NCBI GenBank assembly: GCA_965116475.1
Contig: OZ220691.1
Location: 1,216,001 to 1,280,000 of the forward strand
DNA length: 64,000 bases
Origin: Gemmatimonadota bacterium
Lineage (GTDB): Bacteria > Gemmatimonadota > Gemmatimonadetes > Palauibacterales > Palauibacteraceae
Reading direction: 5' to 3'
Part shown: positions 8,188 through 58,760 of the stretch, piece after piece
How the letters are laid out: each line of letters opens with the position of its first letter
How positions within the stretch are numbered: position 1 is the stretch's first letter
Translations under genes and position numbers: made by a program
Notes under the pieces: model-generated
Databases searched by the model: none
What the model was told of the DNA's origin: nothing
What the model saw: only the letters and a program-made list of their open reading frames with translations

Positions 8188-8239
8188 GGTCCCGACTCCG
8201 GAGAAGGACAACGACACCGAAGTGCTGCAGTTTGGAAAA

Positions 8240-8313
8240 TCGGGGCGGCGAGATTTGAACTCGCGACCTCCTGAACCCCATTCAGGCGCGCTACCGGGCT
8301 GCGCCACGCCCCG
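8240..8313 (-). tRNA. tRNA-Pro(GGG), CCA not encoded
   Basis: CGGGGCGTGGCGCAGCCCGGTAGCGCG-CCTGA ATGGGGT TCAGG-AGGTCGCGAGTTCAAATCTCGCCGCCCCGA cloverleaf. Confidence 0.95.
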
Positions 8314-8324
8314 ATGTGGACGTG

Positions 8325-28294: not shown

Positions 28295-28395
28295 CGCTAC
28301 GACCGCCTTCGGCGGCCCGCGTAATCCTGGGGGGCAGCTTGGACGACCAGGCAGACTTAACAGTACGCCCAGCCAACATGACTGGGCGGGCGGAA

Positions 28396-28469
28396 TCGGG
28401 GCGCCCGGATTTGAACCGGGGACCTCTGCGTCCCGAACGCAGCGCTCTACCGGACTGAGCCACGCCCCG
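28396..28469 (-). tRNA. tRNA-Pro(CGG)
   Basis: Anticodon arm CTGCG TTCGGGA CGCAG; GGTTCAAATCC T-arm. Confidence 0.95.
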
Positions 28470-28540
28470 AGGGGTACTGCGGACCGCGCGTTGGGCGCGG
28501 GGGCCGGGCTCGCGAACGAGATGGCGAGCCGGCGACGAAG

Positions 28541-28613
28541 AGCGGGTGACCGGATTCGAACCGGCGACCTCAACCTTGGCAAGGTTGCGCTCTACCAACT
28601 GAGCTACACCCGC
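28541..28613 (-). tRNA. tRNA-Gly(GCC)
   Basis: Anticodon arm CAACC TTGCCAA GGTTG. Confidence 0.95.
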
Positions 28614-28674
28614 GTGTGCTGCTCCCTCCAGGCCTGCGGCCCGTTGGGCCGGCCGAGCCGGAGGGGTCCTTCAG

Positions 28675-28746
28675 AGCCACCGGTCGGATTTGAACCGACG
28701 ACCGCCGCATTACGAATGCGGTGCTCTACCCCTGAGCTACGGTGGC
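28675..28746 (-). tRNA. tRNA-Thr(CGT)
   Basis: Anticodon arm CCGCA TTCGTAA TGCGG. Confidence 0.95.
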
Positions 28747-28820
28747 GAGCCGTCGGCCGCTACCCGTGGCGGCCCTGGCGAGAAGGCTCGCCGGGGCTGC
28801 GGGGGTGGACGCGACGGGAG

Positions 28821-28894
28821 TGGAGCCGGCGGGATTTGAACCCGCGACCTCTTGAGTGCGATTCAAGCGCTCTCCCAAACTGAGCTACGGCCCC
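28821..28894 (-). tRNA. tRNA-Ala(CGC)
   Basis: Anticodon arm CTTGA ATCGCAC TCAAG; G3:U70 pair. Confidence 0.95.
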
Positions 28895-28916
28895 TCGCTC
28901 GACACGCTTTTCGGAA

Positions 28917-28991
28917 CGGGGCTGACGGGATTTGAACCCGCGACCTCCGGTGTGACAGACCGGCACTCTAACCAGACTGAGCTACAGCCCC
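28917..28991 (-). tRNA. tRNA-Asp(GTC)
   Basis: Anticodon arm CCGGT CTGTCAC ACCGG. Confidence 0.95.
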
Positions 28992-29008
28992 CTGCGGCGG
29001 CGTTTCGA

Positions 29009-29082
<74 letters not shown>

Positions 29083-46234: not shown

Positions 46235-47332
46235 ATGGCGGTGGTTTCCATGAGCTCCAGCGATGGTCACGGACACGATCATGACCACGATCATGGGCAT
46301 GATCACGACCACGCGCATGATCACGACGATGATCACGACCATGATCACCACCACCACGGGCATGATCACGACCACCATCACCACCACGGTATTTTCGGCG
46401 CCCACGATCATTCGGACGAACTGAGGAACGCCAGCAAGCGCGACCTGACGGTCGCCCTGCTGATCATCGCCAGCTTCATGTTCGTAGAGGTGGTCGGGGG
46501 CATCCTGTCCGGAAGTCTGGCGCTCATCGCCGACGCGGGGCACATGCTCACCGACGCGGCTTCCATCGGCCTCGCGCTGTTCGCCGTGCACTTCGCGACG
46601 CGTGCCGCCTCGGTGGAGCGCACGTTCGGCTACCACCGGCTTGAGATCCTCGCCGCCCTCATCAACGCCCTCACGCTGTGGCTGATCTCGGCCTGGGTGA
46701 TCTTCGAGGCGTACCACCGCTTCCAGGATATCCCGGAGGTCGAGGGCGGCCTGATGCTGATCGTGGGGACCCTCGGGCTGCTCGCCAATCTCGCCGCGGC
46801 CTGGGTGCTGCACCGGTCGGCGAAGCACAGCGTGAACGTCGAAGGCGCCCTGGCCCACGTGATCGCCGACATCCTCGGGTCGGTGGCAGTCATCGTGTCC
46901 GGCGTGCTCGTATGGGCCTTCGGCTGGTACATCTCGGATCCGATCCTCAGCGTCCTCATCGGGATACTGATCCTGCTCAGCACATGGCGCCTGCTGGCCA
47001 AGGTTGTACACGTGCTGCTCGAGGGGACGCCGGATCACGTCGACGTGTACAAGCTCTGCCACCAGATCGAGGATCTTGAGGGGGTCACGGTGATTCACGA
47101 TGTCCATGTGTGGACGCTCGCACCGGGCTACGACGCGCTCACGGCGCATGTCCTGGTGGATCCGGAGCACGGGGGCGATACGACGAAGCTCCTCGACAGG
47201 ATCCGGGAGATCGCCTACGACGACTTCAACCTGCAGCACGTCACGGTCCAGGTGGAGACCAGTGCCGCGCAGTGCAACGAAGACCACCACGTCGACCATT
47301 TGGTCGCAACGGCGCGACCTCACTCTCACTAG
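46235..47332 (+). CDS. Cation diffusion facilitator (CzcD/ZitB-like) with long His/Asp N-terminus
   Basis: (HD)n leader; SLALIADAGHMLTD, TFGYHRLE, HVIAD, HDVHVW. Confidence 0.93.
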   Translation: MAVVSMSSSDGHGHDHDHDHGHDHDHAHDHDDDHDHDHHHHGHDHDHHHHHGIFGAHDHSDELRNASKRDLTVALLIIASFMFVEVVGGILSGSLALIADAGHMLTDAASIGLALFAVHFATRAASVERTFGYHRLEILAALINALTLWLISAWVIFEAYHRFQDIPEVEGGLMLIVGTLGLLANLAAAWVLHRSAKHSVNVEGALAHVIADILGSVAVIVSGVLVWAFGWYISDPILSVLIGILILLSTWRLLAKVVHVLLEGTPDHVDVYKLCHQIEDLEGVTVIHDVHVWTLAPGYDALTAHVLVDPEHGGDTTKLLDRIREIAYDDFNLQHVTVQVETSAAQCNEDHHVDHLVATARPHSH

Positions 47333-47347
47333 TCAAGGAGAACGCAA

Positions 47348-47671
47348 ATGGGCGGCCACGACCACAACTGCGAGGGTCACGACAGCAGCCATAAGCACGG
47401 TGACGGTTGCGGCCACGAAGCCGTGGAGCATGATGGCCATACGGACTACGTCGTCGATGGCCACCTGCACCATGTGCACGGAGATCACTGCGACGACCAC
47501 GGCCCGGCCGAGGGTCATGGCCACGATTGCGATGGGCACGCCAGCGACCACACGCACGGCGACGGCTGCGGCCACGAGGCCGTGGAGCACGATGGCCACA
47601 CGGATTATGTCGTCGATGGCCGCTTGCACCACGTGCACGCCGGGCACTGCGACGATCACGGTCCGGCTTAG
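47348..47671 (+). CDS. His/Cys-rich small metal-binding protein with internal duplication
   Basis: AAGGAG RBS; two copies of HxHGDGCGHEAVEHDGHTDYVVDG.LHHVH..HCDDHGPA; 27 His and 6 Cys in 107 aa. Confidence 0.85.
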   Translation: MGGHDHNCEGHDSSHKHGDGCGHEAVEHDGHTDYVVDGHLHHVHGDHCDDHGPAEGHGHDCDGHASDHTHGDGCGHEAVEHDGHTDYVVDGRLHHVHAGHCDDHGPA

Positions 47672-52051: not shown

Positions 52052-52918
52052 ATGAACCACAAAACGACAAGACTCGCCCTGCCCAAGGGGCGGATGCAGT
52101 CCGGCGTACTCGAACTGCTGACCGCCGCCGGCGTGCGCGTGGATCTCGGGGAGCGCCGCTACCGCCCGGTCATCTCGGTCCCCGGCTTCGGCGCCAAGCT
52201 GCTAAAGCCGCAGAACGTCGTGGAGATGCTGCATGCGGGATCCCGCGACCTGGGATTCGCGGGCGCCGACTGGGTGGCGGAACTGAACGGATCGCTGGTC
52301 GAACTGCTGGACACGGGGCTCGACCCGGTGCGCGTCGTGGCGGCCGCTCCGACGCAGATCGCCGGGGCGGGACTGCGCGCCGCCGGCCGTCGTCTCACCG
52401 TCGCGTCCGAATACGCGCGGCTTTCCGCGCGCTGGATCGACGAGCGGGGACTCGACGCGACGCTCGTGCGGTCGTACGGGGCGACGGAGGTGTTTCCGCC
52501 GGAGGACGCCGACGTGATCGTCGACAACACCGCGACGGGCGCGACGCTCGACGCCAACGGGCTTGAGATCGTCGACGAACTCATGGCCTCCTCGACCCGC
52601 CTCTACGCGAACCCGCGGGCGCTCGAGGACCCGCGGCACCGCGAGCGAATCGAGAACCTGGTCGTCGTGCTAAAGTCGGTCGTGGAAGCCCGTCAGCGGG
52701 TCATGCTGGAAGTCAACGTGGACGCGGCGCGGCTGGATGACCTGGTGGCCGTGCTCCCCTGCATGCGCAAGCCGACGGTTTCGCGCCTGCACGGTGAAGG
52801 GGGCTACGCCATCCGGGTCGCCGTGCTGCGCGAAGCCCTCCCGGGCCTGATCCCGCGCGTGAAGGCGCGGGGCGGGACCGATCTCGTCGTGACGACGCCG
52901 GGACAGATCGTCGCATGA
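52052..52918 (+). CDS. hisG: ATP phosphoribosyltransferase, long form
   Basis: RLALPKGR, DLGFAGADWVAE, GATE..PPEDADVIVD...TGATL; C-terminal regulatory domain. Confidence 0.95.
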   Translation: MNHKTTRLALPKGRMQSGVLELLTAAGVRVDLGERRYRPVISVPGFGAKLLKPQNVVEMLHAGSRDLGFAGADWVAELNGSLVELLDTGLDPVRVVAAAPTQIAGAGLRAAGRRLTVASEYARLSARWIDERGLDATLVRSYGATEVFPPEDADVIVDNTATGATLDANGLEIVDELMASSTRLYANPRALEDPRHRERIENLVVVLKSVVEARQRVMLEVNVDAARLDDLVAVLPCMRKPTVSRLHGEGGYAIRVAVLREALPGLIPRVKARGGTDLVVTTPGQIVA

Positions 52919-53931
52919 GCGGGATGGCGGTGGCCGCACCACCGGGCGAACGGCTCCGGCTCGATCACAACGAGCGCCTGTTTCCGGCGCCGGAACTCGT
53001 CCGTCTCCTCGCGCGCGTCCCGGCGAGCGCCCTGACGCGGTATCCGGAGACGGCCGCCCTGGAAGAGTCCCTCGGTGCGGTTTTGGGGCTGGACGCCGAC
53101 CGCGTCCTGGTCACGGCGGGGGCGGATGACGCGATCGACCGCGTGTGCCGCCGCTACCTGTCCGGCGGACGCGAGCTGATCACCGTGACCCCCACATTCG
53201 AGATGATCCCGGCTTTCGCGTCGCTCGCGGGCGGCCGCGTGCGGTCGATCCCCACGCTGAACGACCCCGCTCCCCTCGGACCCATACGCGACCGTATCGG
53301 GGGACGGACGGGGCTGGTCGCCGTGATCTCGCCGCACAACCCCACGGGAGAGGCGGTCCCGGCCGCGCGAATCCTCGAGATCGCCGACAGCCTGCCGGAC
53401 GGCGCGGCCCTGCTCGCGGATCTCGCCTACGTCGAGTTCGCCGACCGCGATCCGACGGCGGAACTGCTGGGGCGCGACAACGTCCTCGTCGCGCGGACGC
53501 TGTCCAAGGCCTGGGGCCTCGCGGGGCTTCGGGTGGGGTTCGTGCTGGGCCCGCCCTCGGCGATCGCGGACCTCCGCACCGGCGGTGCGCCCTTCCCTCT
53601 TGCGGCCCCCTCCATCTGGCTGGCGGAGCAGGCGCTGGCGTTGGGCGACCGGGTCACCTCGACGTACGTCGCCGCCGTGCGCCGCGAGCGCGAGAGGCTC
53701 GTCTCGGCGCTGCGCGCGGCGGGGGCGGAGCCCTTCGAGTCGCAGGCGAACTTCGTGCTCGCCTCCACCGACCGGGCCGCCGCCCTGTACCGCGGCTTTC
53801 GGCAGCGGGGCGTCGCGATCCGGCGCTTTCCGAACTTCCCGGACCTGGTCCGGATCACGCTTCCGGGGGACGAGGCGACGTTCCGCCTCCTCCTCCGGGT
53901 GCTCGACACGACGGTTGGACACTTCTCGTGA
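52915..53931 (+). CDS. hisC: Histidinol-phosphate aminotransferase
   Basis: RLDHNE, SPHNPTG, DLAYVEF, RTLSKAWGLAGLRVG, SQANF. Confidence 0.92.
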   Translation: MSGMAVAAPPGERLRLDHNERLFPAPELVRLLARVPASALTRYPETAALEESLGAVLGLDADRVLVTAGADDAIDRVCRRYLSGGRELITVTPTFEMIPAFASLAGGRVRSIPTLNDPAPLGPIRDRIGGRTGLVAVISPHNPTGEAVPAARILEIADSLPDGAALLADLAYVEFADRDPTAELLGRDNVLVARTLSKAWGLAGLRVGFVLGPPSAIADLRTGGAPFPLAAPSIWLAEQALALGDRVTSTYVAAVRRERERLVSALRAAGAEPFESQANFVLASTDRAAALYRGFRQRGVAIRRFPNFPDLVRITLPGDEATFRLLLRVLDTTVGHFS

Positions 53932-53942
53932 AGGGGATTCCC

Positions 53943-54647
53943 ATGAATGCGAATTCCGAAGACAGTCGCTCGGCCGGCGGACGGGTGGGAGAACGGTCCC
54001 GGCGGACGCTCGAGACCCGCATCGAAGCCGGGCTTGATCTGGACTGCCGCGGGCGCAGCCGCATCGACACGGGGCTCGCGTTTCTCGATCACATGATCGG
54101 CGCCTCGGTGTTTCACGCCGGCATGACGCTGGATCTGCGCGCGCAGGGCGACCTCGACATCGACGATCACCACACGGTGGAAGACTGCGGACTCGTGTTC
54201 GGGTCGGTCATCCGCGACGCACTCGGGGACCGGCAGGGGATTCGCCGCTTCGGGTACGCCTACGCGCCGCTCGACGAAGCGCTCGCCCGCGCGGTCGTCG
54301 ACCTCTCCGGGCGTCCCTTCGCCGAGGTGGACCTCGGCCTCCGGCGCGAGATGCTGGGGGCCGTGGCGACCGAGAACCTCAGCCATTTCTTCGCCTCGCT
54401 CGCGACGGCGGGAGGTCTCACGCTGCACGTCGATGTCATCCGCGGAGACAACGACCACCACAGGGCGGAAGCCGCCTTCAAGGCGTTCGGTCTCGCCCTC
54501 GCCGAAGCGGTAGCCGAACGCTCCGCGGCCGGAGTTCCGAGCACGAAAGGGGTGCTCGGATCGGGCGACGTGCCCGCAGGCGACGTGCCCGCAGGCGACA
54601 TGGAAGAGGACTCGGGGGCGGAGACCCTCGAGAGGGTGTCTCGATGA
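53943..54647 (+). CDS. hisB: Imidazoleglycerol-phosphate dehydratase (monofunctional)
   Basis: FLDHM, DDHHTVED, NDHHRAEAAFKAFG, PSTKG. Confidence 0.95.
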   Translation: MNANSEDSRSAGGRVGERSRRTLETRIEAGLDLDCRGRSRIDTGLAFLDHMIGASVFHAGMTLDLRAQGDLDIDDHHTVEDCGLVFGSVIRDALGDRQGIRRFGYAYAPLDEALARAVVDLSGRPFAEVDLGLRREMLGAVATENLSHFFASLATAGGLTLHVDVIRGDNDHHRAEAAFKAFGLALAEAVAERSAAGVPSTKGVLGSGDVPAGDVPAGDMEEDSGAETLERVSR

Positions 54648-55327
54648 GCGCCGCGCGGGTGGCCACGGGCCCGGAAGACGTGGGGATCGTTCCGACCGGA
54701 GTGGCGAACCTGGAGGCGGTGGCGGCCGCCTTCCGGCGGTTGGGGAAGACCCCGCGGCTGCTGGACTCCGCCGCCGGAATATCGCGCGCCGACTACGTCG
54801 TCCTCCCCGGCGTGGGGTCTTTCGCCGGAGGCATGGCGGAGCTGCGCCGGCGCGGATGGGCGGAGGCCGTCTGCGGGCGCGTGGAGGAGGGACGGCCGAC
54901 GCTCGCCATCTGCCTCGGACTGCAGCTTCTGTGCGAGGAGAGCGAGGAAGCTCCGGGCACCGCCGGGCTTGGGTGTGTGCCGGGCCGCGTGGTCCGGCTG
55001 GCGGAGAGTTGCCGGGTTCCCCAGTTGGGCTGGAACCGCGTCGCGGCTCCGGGCGGGACCGCGTTCCTGCGGTCTTCTGTCGTCTACTTCGCCAACTCCT
55101 ACGGGCTCGAAGCGGGTCCCGCCGGCTGGACGGCCGCGATGGGACGGCACGGGAGCCGCTTCGTGGCGGGGCTGGAGCGCGGCGGCGTCCTCGCCTGCCA
55201 GTTCCACCCGGAGTTGTCGGGGAAGGTCGGCGCGGGCCTTCTGAAGCGATGGCTCGAAGAGTCGCCGGGCGCGGCGGAGGCGTTCGAACGGCGCGCGCAA
55301 TGGCCCACGCTCGCGGCGGCATGCTGA
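54644..55327 (+). CDS. hisH: IGP synthase glutaminase subunit
   Basis: LPGVGSF, ICLGLQ, VPQLGWN, QFHPELSG. Confidence 0.93.
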   Translation: MSAARVATGPEDVGIVPTGVANLEAVAAAFRRLGKTPRLLDSAAGISRADYVVLPGVGSFAGGMAELRRRGWAEAVCGRVEEGRPTLAICLGLQLLCEESEEAPGTAGLGCVPGRVVRLAESCRVPQLGWNRVAAPGGTAFLRSSVVYFANSYGLEAGPAGWTAAMGRHGSRFVAGLERGGVLACQFHPELSGKVGAGLLKRWLEESPGAAEAFERRAQWPTLAAAC

Positions 55328-56112
55328 ACGTTCGGGTCATTCCGTGCCTGGACGTGAGGGACGGCAGGGTCGTGAAGGGCGTCCGGTTCGACAACCTCGC
55401 GGATCAGGGCGACCCCGCCCGGCTCGCGCGACGCTACGAGCGCGAGGGGGCGGACGAACTCGTGATCCTCGATGTCTCGGCCACGGCGGAGGGAAGAGTG
55501 GCCCGGTTCGAAACGGTGGGCCGCGTGCGTGACGAGATTTCGATTCCGCTCACGGTCGGCGGCGGCGTGCGGACGGCGGAAGACGCGGGCGCCCTGCTGG
55601 AGGCGGGGGCGGACCGGGTCGCGGTGAACACGGCGGCGGTCGAGCGACCTGAACTCCTGTCGGAGATCGCGAGCCGTTTCGGCGCCCAGTGCGCGGTCCT
55701 GGCGCTGGACGCCGGCGCGGCGGCCGACGAGGGGGACGCCGGCGCGGCCAGCGGGGCGTGTCCGAGCGGCTTCGAGGTTCTGACCCACTCCGGAAGCCGA
55801 CGCACGGGCCTCGATGCCGCGGAGTGGGGCCGCCGCGCGGCGGAGCTGGGCGCGGGCGAGATCCTCCTCACGAGCTTCGACCGCGACGGCACGCGGAGCG
55901 GCTACGACCTGGCCCTGGTCGGCGTCATCCGCGAGGCCGTGCCGGTGCCGATCGTGGCTTCCGGCGGGGGAGCCCATGCGGGTCACATGTGCGCGGCGGT
56001 CGAGGCCGGCGCCGACGCGGTCCTGGCGGCGTCGATTTTCCATCAGGGCGACTGGTCGATCGGCCGACTCAAGGATCGACTGCAGCAGCTCGGCGTCGCG
56101 GTGCGTCGATGA
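55321..56112 (+). CDS. hisF: IGP synthase cyclase subunit
   Basis: RVIPCLDV, GADELVILD, VGGG, GEILLTS.DRDGT, ASGG, LAASIFH. Confidence 0.95.
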   Translation: MLNVRVIPCLDVRDGRVVKGVRFDNLADQGDPARLARRYEREGADELVILDVSATAEGRVARFETVGRVRDEISIPLTVGGGVRTAEDAGALLEAGADRVAVNTAAVERPELLSEIASRFGAQCAVLALDAGAAADEGDAGAASGACPSGFEVLTHSGSRRTGLDAAEWGRRAAELGAGEILLTSFDRDGTRSGYDLALVGVIREAVPVPIVASGGGAHAGHMCAAVEAGADAVLAASIFHQGDWSIGRLKDRLQQLGVAVRR

Positions 56113-58760
56113 TCGTCCCATCCATCGACCTGATGGGCGGCCGGGCCGTGCAGCTTCGGCAGGGCTCGACGCTCGAAATCGACGCCGGCGACCCGCGGCC
56201 TCTCGCCGAACGGTTCGCCGTCGCGGGAGAAGTCGCGGTCATCGATCTCGACGCGGCGCTCGGCCGCGGAGACAACGCCGCCGTCATCCGGGAACTGCTC
56301 CGGCTCGCCCCGTGTCGGGTGGGAGGCGGCATCCGGTCCCGCGAGGCGGCGCTCGACTGGCTCGACGCGGGAGCGCGGCGCGTGATCCTGGGCACGGCGG
56401 CGAATCCCGACATCCTGAGCGGACTCCCTGCGGAACGGGTGATCGCGGCGCTCGACGCGCGCGATGGCGAGGTCGTCGTGGAGGGCTGGCAACGCGGGAC
56501 GGGCCGTGACGTCCTCGGGCGGATGGCGGAACTCGACGGCCTCGCGGGCGGCTACCTGGTCACCTTCGTGGAGGTCGAAGGGACGCTGGAGGGGATCCCG
56601 CTGGATCGCGTCGCCGCCCTCGTCGCGGCCGCGGGATCCGCGCGGGTGACGGTGGCGGGAGGTGTCCGCGAGGTGTCGGAGATCGCGGCGCTGGACCGGA
56701 TGGGCGCCGACGCGCAGGTGGGGATGGCGATCTACAGCGGGCGCATGGACCTCGCCGACGCCTTCTCCGCTCCGCTGCGGTCCGACCGGGCCGACGGGTT
56801 GTGGGCGACGCTGGTCGAGGACACGGCCGGTCGCGCGCTCGGGCTCGCGTGGTCGAGCGCGGAGAGCCTCCGCACCGCCGTCAGTGAACGGCGCGGCGTC
56901 TACCAGAGCCGCTCGCGGGGACTCTGGAGGAAGGGCGAGACCTCCGGCGCCACGCAGGAACTCGTCCGCGTGGCGGCGGACTGCGACCGCGACACGCTGC
57001 GCTTCACGGTGCGGCAGCACGGGACCGGCTTCTGCCACACCGGCGCCGCGACGTGTTTCGACGCCGCGCCGTCGCGGATGTCGGCGGCGCTGCCGTCCCT
57101 GTCGGGCATGGGACTGTCCGACCTTGAAACCCGCCTCCGCGATCGGCTCGCCGACGCGGAGGCGGGCTCGCTGACCGCGCGGCTCGCGGGGGACCCCGAA
57201 CTGCTGCGGGGGAAACTCGTCGAGGAAGCGCAGGAACTGGCGGAAGCCGGATCGAAGGCGGAAGCGGTGGCGGAGTTCGCGGACCTGCACTACTTCGCCC
57301 TAACGCGGCTCGTGAACGCCGGCGGCTCACTCGAAGACGTACGCCGCGAACTCGAGCGGCGCGCCCTCAAGGTGCGCCGACGGGCCCCGCGGCTGCCGGG
57401 AGGGCAGACGGGGCGGGCGGCGGCGCCCGCTCCGGCCGCGGCGGGCGCCGCGGGCGCGGTCCTGCCGCCGATCGGCCTCGAGGAGGCCGTGCGGGCGGTG
57501 CGCTCGCCGGCGCTCGATCCCGCGGCCCTCGAGGTCGCGCGGACGATCCTCGACGATGTCGAGCGGCGGGGAGAGCCGGCGCTCCGCGAGCACGCCGAGC
57601 GGCTGGGCGACATCGAGCCGGACGACGACCTACTCCTCGACCGGGCGGCTCTCAAGCGCGCGGCAGAGGCACTGCACGCCGACGACCGCGCGTTGCTGCG
57701 CCGCGTGGCCGACCGGATCCGCGCGTTCGCGGAGGCCCAGCGGGCATCCGCGGATGACCTCGACACGCCGGTCGCCGGCGGCCGCGGCGGCCATCGCCTC
57801 GTACCCGTCGGAGCGGCCGGCTGCTACGCGCCCGGGGGGCGCTTCCCCCTCCCATCCTCGGTGCTCATGACCGCCATTCCGGCGCGGGTGGCGGGCGTGG
57901 CCGGCGTCTGGGCGGCATCGCCGCGCCCGACCGCGGCGGTCCAGGCCGCGGCGTTCATGGCGGGGGCGGACGGCCTGCTCGCCATCGGCGGCGCGCAGGC
58001 GATCGGCGCGCTCGCCTTCGGCGTCGGCGGCGTCTCCCGCTGCGAGAAGATCGTGGGGCCGGGCAACCGGTTCGTCACCGGGGCCAAGCGCCTCCTCTAC
58101 GGCCGGGTAGGCCTCGACACCATCGCCGGCCCGTCCGAGTTGCTCGTCGTCGCCTCGCCGGATGCGTCACCGACGCGCGTCGCGGCCGACCTGCTCGCCC
58201 AGGCCGAGCACGACCCCGACGCCGTCCCGCTTCTGTGCGTCTTCGACGAAGCGACCGTCGAGGCCGTCCGCGAAGAGGCCGGGCGGCAGTTGGCCGCGCT
58301 CCCGACCGCGCCGATCGCGCGTCAGGCCCTGGCGGCCGGCGGCACCCTCCTCGCGGCCAGCCCCGACGAGGCCGCCGCCATCTGCGACGCGTTGGCGCCG
58401 GAGCACCTGCACCTGCACGGGGAGCGGGCCGAGGCCCTCGCCCCCCGCGTCCACCGCTACGGATCGCTCTTCCTGGGCGCGGCCACGCCCGAGGCGGCGG
58501 GCGACTACGGAGCGGGACCGAACCACACGCTGCCCACATCGGGCGCGGCGGCGTTCGACGCGGGACTCTCGGTGTTTTCGTTCCTGCGCCGACCGACGTG
58601 GCTGTCGCTGTCGTCCGACGAGGACGGTTACGAGGAGCTGCTGCGCGACACCGCCGCGCTCGCCCGGCTGGAGGGACTGGAAGCCCACGCGCTTTCAGCG
58701 GAACTGCGGCTCACGGTAGCGGCCCGGGAGGGTCCCGGTCGGACGGCCCGCGCTTCGTGA
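56109..58760 (+). CDS. HisA-HisI-HisE-HisD four-domain fusion (883 aa)
   Basis: HisA: MIVPSIDLMGGRAVQL, VGGGIR; HisI: SRSR.LWRKGETSG, DCDRD, CHTG...CF; HisE: KLVEEAQEL, EFADL.YF; HisD: GPGNRFV, AGPSE, QAEHD, APEHL, GDY..GPNHTLPT. Confidence 0.9.
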   Translation: MIVPSIDLMGGRAVQLRQGSTLEIDAGDPRPLAERFAVAGEVAVIDLDAALGRGDNAAVIRELLRLAPCRVGGGIRSREAALDWLDAGARRVILGTAANPDILSGLPAERVIAALDARDGEVVVEGWQRGTGRDVLGRMAELDGLAGGYLVTFVEVEGTLEGIPLDRVAALVAAAGSARVTVAGGVREVSEIAALDRMGADAQVGMAIYSGRMDLADAFSAPLRSDRADGLWATLVEDTAGRALGLAWSSAESLRTAVSERRGVYQSRSRGLWRKGETSGATQELVRVAADCDRDTLRFTVRQHGTGFCHTGAATCFDAAPSRMSAALPSLSGMGLSDLETRLRDRLADAEAGSLTARLAGDPELLRGKLVEEAQELAEAGSKAEAVAEFADLHYFALTRLVNAGGSLEDVRRELERRALKVRRRAPRLPGGQTGRAAAPAPAAAGAAGAVLPPIGLEEAVRAVRSPALDPAALEVARTILDDVERRGEPALREHAERLGDIEPDDDLLLDRAALKRAAEALHADDRALLRRVADRIRAFAEAQRASADDLDTPVAGGRGGHRLVPVGAAGCYAPGGRFPLPSSVLMTAIPARVAGVAGVWAASPRPTAAVQAAAFMAGADGLLAIGGAQAIGALAFGVGGVSRCEKIVGPGNRFVTGAKRLLYGRVGLDTIAGPSELLVVASPDASPTRVAADLLAQAEHDPDAVPLLCVFDEATVEAVREEAGRQLAALPTAPIARQALAAGGTLLAASPDEAAAICDALAPEHLHLHGERAEALAPRVHRYGSLFLGAATPEAAGDYGAGPNHTLPTSGAAAFDAGLSVFSFLRRPTWLSLSSDEDGYEELLRDTAALARLEGLEAHALSAELRLTVAAREGPGRTARAS

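Follow-up and report, generated by a model that had tools for sequence, protein, structure and literature searches.

The window examined here, a stretch of 64,000 nucleotides (nt) from the genome of a Gemmatimonadota bacterium (GenBank assembly GCA_965116475.1, contig OZ220691.1, positions 1,216,001 to 1,280,000 of the forward strand), carries a histidine biosynthesis (his) operon whose last gene, hisAIED, joins four his enzymes in one polypeptide in the order HisA-HisI-HisE-HisD (A-I-E-D; single letters stand for the respective enzymes below). This gene, and the relation of its HisA domain to the N-terminal region of fungal His4, are the subject of the present analysis. The gene and its parts are as follows.

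56109..58760, + strand: hisAIED fusion gene (P0001), 883 amino acids (aa), ATG start, no internal stop
56109..56768, + strand: HisA (ProFAR isomerase) TIM-barrel domain, residues 1-220; PF00977 and alignment to E. coli HisA
56781..56801, + strand: SDRADGL junction motif at the HisI start, common to fungal, choanoflagellate and amoebozoan proteins
56781..57068, + strand: HisI (PR-AMP cyclohydrolase) domain, PF01502; D291-C292-D293-x-D295, C309-H310, C316
57117..57362, + strand: HisE (PR-ATP pyrophosphohydrolase) domain, PF01503; TIGR03188 above cut-off
57363..57488, + strand: Ala/Pro/Gly linker between HisE and HisD, the site of a stop/start overlap in split relatives
57525..58712, + strand: HisD (histidinol dehydrogenase) domain, TIGR00069 above cut-off

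The four-domain fusion is real. Pfam matches, all exceeding the gathering scores, were obtained on the fusion protein to His_biosynth (residues 1-213, E 9.6e-40), PRA-CH (246-317, E 3.6e-25), PRA-PH (337-418, E 7.6e-13) and Histidinol_dh (473-868, E 2.8e-118). A preliminary description made from the sequence had read a single uninterrupted 883-codon frame with four his enzymes and an Ala/Pro linker before HisD, and both points were borne out: the frame is open throughout, and the linker GRAAAPAPAAAGAAG was located at residues 435-449 (57411-57455). The HisE-HisD junction (57360-57470) was then verified on assembled contigs from two studies, not on raw reads. The contig from run X1, possibly the source sample, covers 55900-58070 without any difference, and that from run X2, a separate study, covers 57200-57754 with linker insertions that total 21 nt, so the frame is kept; neither contig shows a stop or a frameshift. 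RNA run X3 gave divergent contigs covering the A/I and D parts, which bear on neither expression nor the junction. The genome appears to be metagenome-derived and its named kin are metagenome-assembled genomes, which could raise the suspicion that the E-D join arose through faulty sequencing or assembly, but the join is crossed in frame by two independent contigs, and the same fusion occurs in three same-genus genomes, each with a full-length frame without stop, and in more than 100 database proteins; this explanation was therefore ruled out, and its probability is negligible.

By comparison with the E. coli his enzymes, the HisD domain is identical at 10 of the 10 checked active-site positions, the HisI domain keeps the DCDxD, CH and C motifs, the HisE domain keeps the acidic motifs EExxE and ExxD, and the HisA domain keeps D7, the Asp of beta1, and D116 (E. 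coli D129), plus the phosphate motifs GGGIR and AGG. The catalytic roles of the checked HisA residues are presumably those assigned in work on S. enterica. A tblastn search of the entire 3.62-Mb genome with the four domains recovered hisA, hisI and hisD nowhere else, in agreement with the earlier remark that the operon holds no separate hisA, hisIE or hisD; apart from the fusion it matched hisF (E 2.5e-6) and, weakly, one HisE-like sequence (E 0.002), and nothing more. Because these domains are the sole copies found in the genome and lie within a his operon, all four are likely active, as far as the sequence can tell, and the fusion polypeptide would perform steps 2-4 of the histidine pathway plus the last two oxidations.

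Fungi use a separate His6 for the HisA step, and the region ahead of HisI in fungal His4 was compared with the bacterial HisA domain by several methods, of which the shuffle, profile-profile and specificity tests were run with the junction motif removed. On a hidden Markov model (HMM) of 73 bacterial HisA-domain rows, 8 of 12 fungal N-termini outscored all 200 shuffles, and the N-terminus of the choanoflagellate Hartaetosiga reached 28.8 bits. A 23-row fungal N-terminal profile aligned with the bacterial HisA profile over 122 columns (HHalign 96.3%, E 1.7e-9), while 29 block shuffles used as a control reached at most 58.6%. Reciprocally, the fungal HMM ranked the hisAIED frame first of 17,793 six-frame open reading frames of the genome (E 3.4e-4), with hisF at E 2.6. 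In a specificity comparison that covered profiles of AIE-type HisA, stand-alone HisA and HisF and left out a His6-family profile, the fungal profile reached 91-96% against AIE-type HisA, compared with 12% against 34 stand-alone HisA and 26% against 40 HisF.

The predicted structures pointed in the same direction. Using AlphaFold2 with a fungal-only alignment, residues 1-205 of the Actinomortierella protein were modelled as eight beta/alpha repeats (predicted local distance difference test score of the block, 77-93), and the best barrel among 48,161 chains was HisA 4gj1 (Z 17.5, root-mean-square deviation (rmsd) 2.4, 184 aligned), followed by HisAp (Z 16.1), HisF-LUCA (15.9) and His6 (15.6); 2agk, which stands in the match list, we take to be the His6 structure. 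With the same procedure a barrel was also predicted for an ascomycete-like N-terminus, which matched HisA at Z 11.2 (rmsd 3.2, 176 aligned). All 8 intact protist domains have the GGG[IV]R and AGG motifs, against 0 of 14 fungal N-regions, and the LDxGAxKV and LPxER structural stretches persist in many fungal N-regions; since hmmalign placed many fungal residues as inserts, the loss of individual residues was judged from motif searches and from the central part of the alignment. Pfam cannot detect this homology: at E 0.05 it assigned no family to any of the fungal N-termini. With the Actinomortierella N-terminus alone as query, a sequence search retrieved only 24 Mortierellomycota proteins, the matches listed by Foldseek for the full-length fungal model were confined to HisD, HisIE and large unrelated proteins, and an ESM Atlas search with residues 1-182 of P0159 gave one uninformative match at 0.75. 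Based on the HMM, profile, specificity, predicted-fold and motif tests, the fungal His4 N-region is most likely a catalytically dead HisA barrel. The preliminary description had likened this region to a decayed HisA domain and had named profile-profile alignment as a check; the alignment revealed the homology, the barrel is predicted and the motifs are lost in 14 of 14, so its suspicion was well founded.

An intact A-I-E-D core was found in the eukaryotes Acanthamoeba, Thecamonas, Paramoeba, Stygamoeba, Protostelium, Copromyxa and Sexangularia, and a Clastostelium protein has the order A-I-E-G. I-E-D behind an unrecognised front end was found in the choanoflagellate Hartaetosiga, the amoebae Arcella and Vermamoeba, and fungi (Mycena, Actinomortierella, Ascoidea, Blastocladiella, Zancudomyces, Melampsora and Cladochytrium), the fungal set also taking in unnamed proteins assigned to fungi by sequence and tree. 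A [ST]DRxDGL-type motif stands at the HisI start of this protein, of 12 of 13 fungal proteins and of the protists checked. The HisA domain is intact in Thecamonas and other amoebae, and the overall distribution suggests parallel HisA decay in tubulinean amoebae, a choanoflagellate and fungi.

Several further eukaryotic proteins were observed in the same searches. In Vermamoeba P0306, Arcella P0125, P0307 and Hartaetosiga P0126, some of which may be incomplete transcripts, the HisA domain has decayed or become shorter. His megaproteins of the order A-I-E-D-C-HAD occur in Protostelium and Sexangularia, and other orders are D-C-HAD-B, C-HAD-D and C-D-G (the further megaproteins are P0122, P0123, P0312, P0128, P0142, P0149 and P0177, the Clastostelium A-I-E-G protein included); their HAD domain may be a histidinol-phosphatase. 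In Ascoidea rubescens P0147 (1414 aa) a nucleoside transporter is joined ahead of His4, probably by a merged gene model.

The operon in the window has the order hisG-C-B-H-F-(AIED), and the genes upstream of the fusion are the following.

52052..52918, + strand: hisG, long form, TIGR00070 and TIGR03455; in the clade of protist HisG domains
52915..53931, + strand: hisC-like aminotransferase, best family TIGR01141 with a score under its cut-off
53943..54647, + strand: hisB, named from motifs and operon position
54644..55327, + strand: hisH, TIGR01855 above cut-off
55324..56112, + strand: hisF, TIGR00735 above cut-off; its stop overlaps the fusion ATG as ATGA

No recognisable histidinol-phosphate phosphatase (hisN) gene was found within the operon (52052-58760), the rest of the genome not having been searched for it. 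Elsewhere in the window lies a membrane protein (46235-47671, + strand) whose long N-terminus is rich in His and Asp and which presumably resembles a cation-diffusion metal exporter; after it comes a His-rich protein of 107 aa that contains an internal repeat. Six tRNA genes (Pro, Gly, Thr, Ala, Asp and Val) are clustered at about 28395-29082 (- strand), and a lone tRNA-Pro lies at 8239-8314 (- strand).

The fusion belongs to a broad bacterial family. Its nearest proteins, with 83-98% identity over residues 1-430, are from Ca. Palauibacter or Gemmatimonadota, and a length-limited database search returned 277 proteins; of the 120 that were listed, 108 have the complete set of four Pfam domains. 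Where a source gives a name to the listed fusions (Gemmatimonadota, Phycisphaerales, Deltaproteobacteria), it is mostly 'histidinol dehydrogenase'; the fusion as such is common in databases, and the preliminary description needs correction on this point. Within Gemmatimonadota, full-length matches were obtained in 4 of 151 genomes, all of one genus, and residues 1-430 were matched as a separate piece in about 20 further genomes, six of which were inspected and found to be AIE + D. Among the best 80 of at least 142 confirmed loci of a GTDB survey (Myxococcota, Planctomycetota, Acidobacteriota, Geminicoccaceae and others; order mostly G-(C)-B-H-F-AIE-(D)), 63 hold A-I-E in a single frame, 13 hold A-I-E-D and 4 are cut or extended, so that HisA-I-E plus adjacent hisD is the bacterial form seen most. 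At 35 of the 56 split junctions the hisD start and the AIE stop share 4 nt (ATGA), and one frameshift can therefore join or split both genes; bacterial AIED proteins as one clade were rejected over the A-I-E region by the approximately unbiased (AU) test (p=0.0001), and we infer that AIE and hisD were joined or split several times. The hisG-C-B-H-F-AIE-D operon is spread patchily over several phyla, probably via horizontal transfer. The operon studied here has the A-I-E fusion directly after hisF and the clade-specific HisG and HisD.

The origin of each domain was traced in separate trees, those of HisD, HisG and A-I-E under LG+G4 without mixtures. In the HisIE tree (122 rows), fungi and protists lie inside the AIE family behind two starred branches (97 and 95), apart from 30 ordinary HisI/HisIE rows, and the tree and the junction motif together indicate common descent of HisIE with fungal His4. 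In the bootstrapped A-I-E tree of 47 rows, 8 protists group together as a single clade within bacteria (100/98), whose sampled sister is the split AIE of a Ca. Sumerlaeia genome (L112; 99/91). Joining the protists to the Palauibacter proteins was rejected over the A-I-E region (AU p=0.037), and the Palauibacter lineage was accordingly discarded as direct donor to eukaryotes; it is a cousin, not an ancestor. In the HisD tree (86 rows), this protein, the operon hisD genes and the protist HisD, the choanoflagellate one included, form one clade (100, starred), whereas 7 fungal HisD domains group with E. coli-type HisD (98, starred), and common descent with the HisD of fungal His4 was not found. 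Forcing fungal HisD into the operon clade was rejected (AU p=0.016), and plant HisD and that of the fungal model share 55% identity. Therefore His4 is chimeric, and its descent intact from the four-domain form was rejected.

The other operon genes gave a consistent picture. In the HisG tree (73 rows), 10 protist domains group with the HisG of AIE genomes (99, starred), with a median identity of about 47% to these vs 31% to 36 others, and by BLAST the HisH and HisF of Acanthamoeba and Thecamonas are closer to this operon (43-46% vs 32% and 60% vs 50-52%, respectively). The match of protist HisG, HisH, HisF and HisD with this operon suggests whole-operon transfer. As a lead to the donor lineage only, L112 lies near the protists in the HisD tree too, and not in the HisG tree. 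The preliminary description had proposed that the protein could represent the intact ancestral-type architecture, to be judged by per-domain phylogenies; the kinship of HisA and HisIE with His4 stood, fungal HisIE falling in the AIE family, and the remainder did not, since the Palauibacter lineage is not the eukaryote sister and fungal HisD is foreign.

Collectively, we consider it likely that the protein is a multifunctional AIED member of the bacterial HisA-I-E family, and that the HisA domain of this family is the source of the predicted, probably inactive front barrel of His4. What probably entered an ancestor of Amoebozoa and Obazoa is a related operon and not the one of this lineage, and the H-F-A-I-E-D-G megaenzyme found in Acanthamoeba and Thecamonas would be the survivor of the acquired operon. 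In fungi, the HisA domain would have lost its catalytic motifs and kept its fold, and HisD would have been replaced by an E. coli/plant-type domain. As for the route, we lean slightly towards an operon block (hisG, H, F, A-I-E, D) that was acquired and fused, with His4 as its chimeric remnant and with parallel decay of the barrel in choanoflagellates and tubulineans. The block would have been fused in operon order into H-F-A-I-E-D-G, and His4 would combine HisIE with a dead HisA barrel, now a pseudoenzyme, in front and an exchanged HisD behind; the H-F-A-I-E-D order is kept in Acanthamoeba and Thecamonas, whereas ordinary operons have H-A-F.

It is conceivable, though rather unlikely in our estimation, that the four-domain A-I-E-D form is ancestral for the whole family and was inherited by eukaryotes as one gene, AIE + hisD having arisen by repeated fission. 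AIED is found at deep positions of the A-I-E tree (P0124, P0073), most named protists have A-I-E-D fused, and the linker region differs little in length between the fused and the split form (medians of 123 and 101 nt, respectively, between domain matches); against this, the split form is the majority in the GTDB survey and is cleanly coupled by ATGA, the sampled protist sister is a split AIE, and fungal HisD is foreign whether the family ancestor was fused or split. Alternatively, the His4 N-terminus could be a TIM barrel of generic type or one fused independently, derived for instance from HisF or His6, which would accord with the Z-scores of HisF-LUCA and His6, which come near that of HisA, and with the slightly higher scores of the fungal N-termini P0155 and P0159 on the HisF profile. 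This origin is improbable, given the profile specificity for AIE-type HisA, the identical placement of the N-region ahead of a HisIE nested in the AIE family, with the junction motif shared, and the intermediates represented by the choanoflagellate N-terminus and P0307. A passage in the reverse direction, from eukaryotes to the bacterial operon or fusion, might be read from the about 50-55% identity of bacterial AIED to Protostelium over the A-I-E-D core and from the patchy distribution, but the protist clade is nested in bacterial diversity with deeper bacterial relatives, and in bacteria the genes stand separately in an operon and overlap, which makes this direction very improbable.

Several observations weigh against the bacterial origin of the His4 barrel and the block acquisition that we favour. 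The N-termini of Ascoidea, Zancudomyces, Melampsora and P0214 do not beat the shuffles individually, 11 of the 23 rows of the fungal profile are Mortierellomycota, the fungal N-terminal tests left out S. cerevisiae His4, and the ascomycete-like model ties HisA (Z 11.2) with GlpP-type barrels (Z 11.6). The tree rows are hand-picked subsets of the fetched sequences with outgroups from four phyla only, the branch of the 30 ordinary HisI/HisIE outgroup rows in the HisIE tree is supported at only 61, and BLAST does not place protist HisC nearer to this operon. The fused state switches at least 4 times across starred branches of the A-I-E tree, and the counts fit fusion or fission alike. As to function, the HisA domain scores 137 bits vs the TIGR00007 equivalog cut-off of 229 and has Glu157 at the position of E. 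coli Asp176 (loop 6); Glu at this position, found in 64 of 73 family rows, is a family trait.

The gene is a housekeeping gene and unremarkable within its family, which is widespread and under-annotated, the label 'histidinol dehydrogenase' concealing its HisA, HisI and HisE functions, but it makes the long-open His4 question directly testable. In the part of Fani et al. (2007, PMC1963479) available to us, the His4 N-region is described as 160-220 aa of unknown function with no conserved domain or PSI-BLAST match, and no prokaryotic HIS4-like protein is reported as found; the N-region left unassigned there is now given a testable identity, and the bacterial AIED proteins overturn the latter finding. 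For the Acanthamoeba enzyme they offer a candidate origin, in a bacterial operon that would have been taken up early, then fused, decayed and patched. The literature searched, mostly outside subscription journals, held no statement of a HisA-derived His4 N-terminus or of a bacterial A-I-E-D protein. In the parts available, PMC6874960 lists yeast His4 among foci-forming enzymes, and PMC7284861, PMC3518814 and PMC6874960 add nothing on its origin.

Compared with known systems, this protein resembles fungal His4 in length class, domain order, HisI junction motif and HisIE family, and likewise carries HisI-HisE-HisD in a single chain behind an N-region of 160-220 aa, which in His4 is homologous to the HisA domain. 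It differs in that the fungal N-region is without the HisA phosphate-binding and catalytic motifs, intact here, and that fungal HisD is of the E. coli/plant type. The bacterial trifunctional PRA-PH/PRA-CH/ProFAR isomerase proteins (Witek et al., 2021, PMC8102479) likewise hold HisA and HisIE in one chain, but are without HisD; the similarity network in the accessible part of that paper mentions bacterial A+I+E proteins and closeness to fungal HIS4, and draws no link from the isomerase domain to the His4 N-terminus. An intact A-I-E-D core is already known from the heptafunctional H-F-A-I-E-D-G enzyme of Acanthamoeba (P0308; Rice et al., 2018, PMC6029752), whose origin is left open, with no bacterial counterpart named, in the part of that paper available. 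That enzyme shares the contiguous A-I-E-D core in equal order and has its A-I-E, D and G in the clades of this operon, but is eukaryotic and additionally includes H, F and G in the fusion. The E. coli operon hisGDCBHAF-IE encodes the same enzymes with conserved active-site residues, whereas the operon described here runs G-C-B-H-F-A-I-E-D, with HisA fused and with HisA, HisG, HisIE and HisD of distinct subfamilies.

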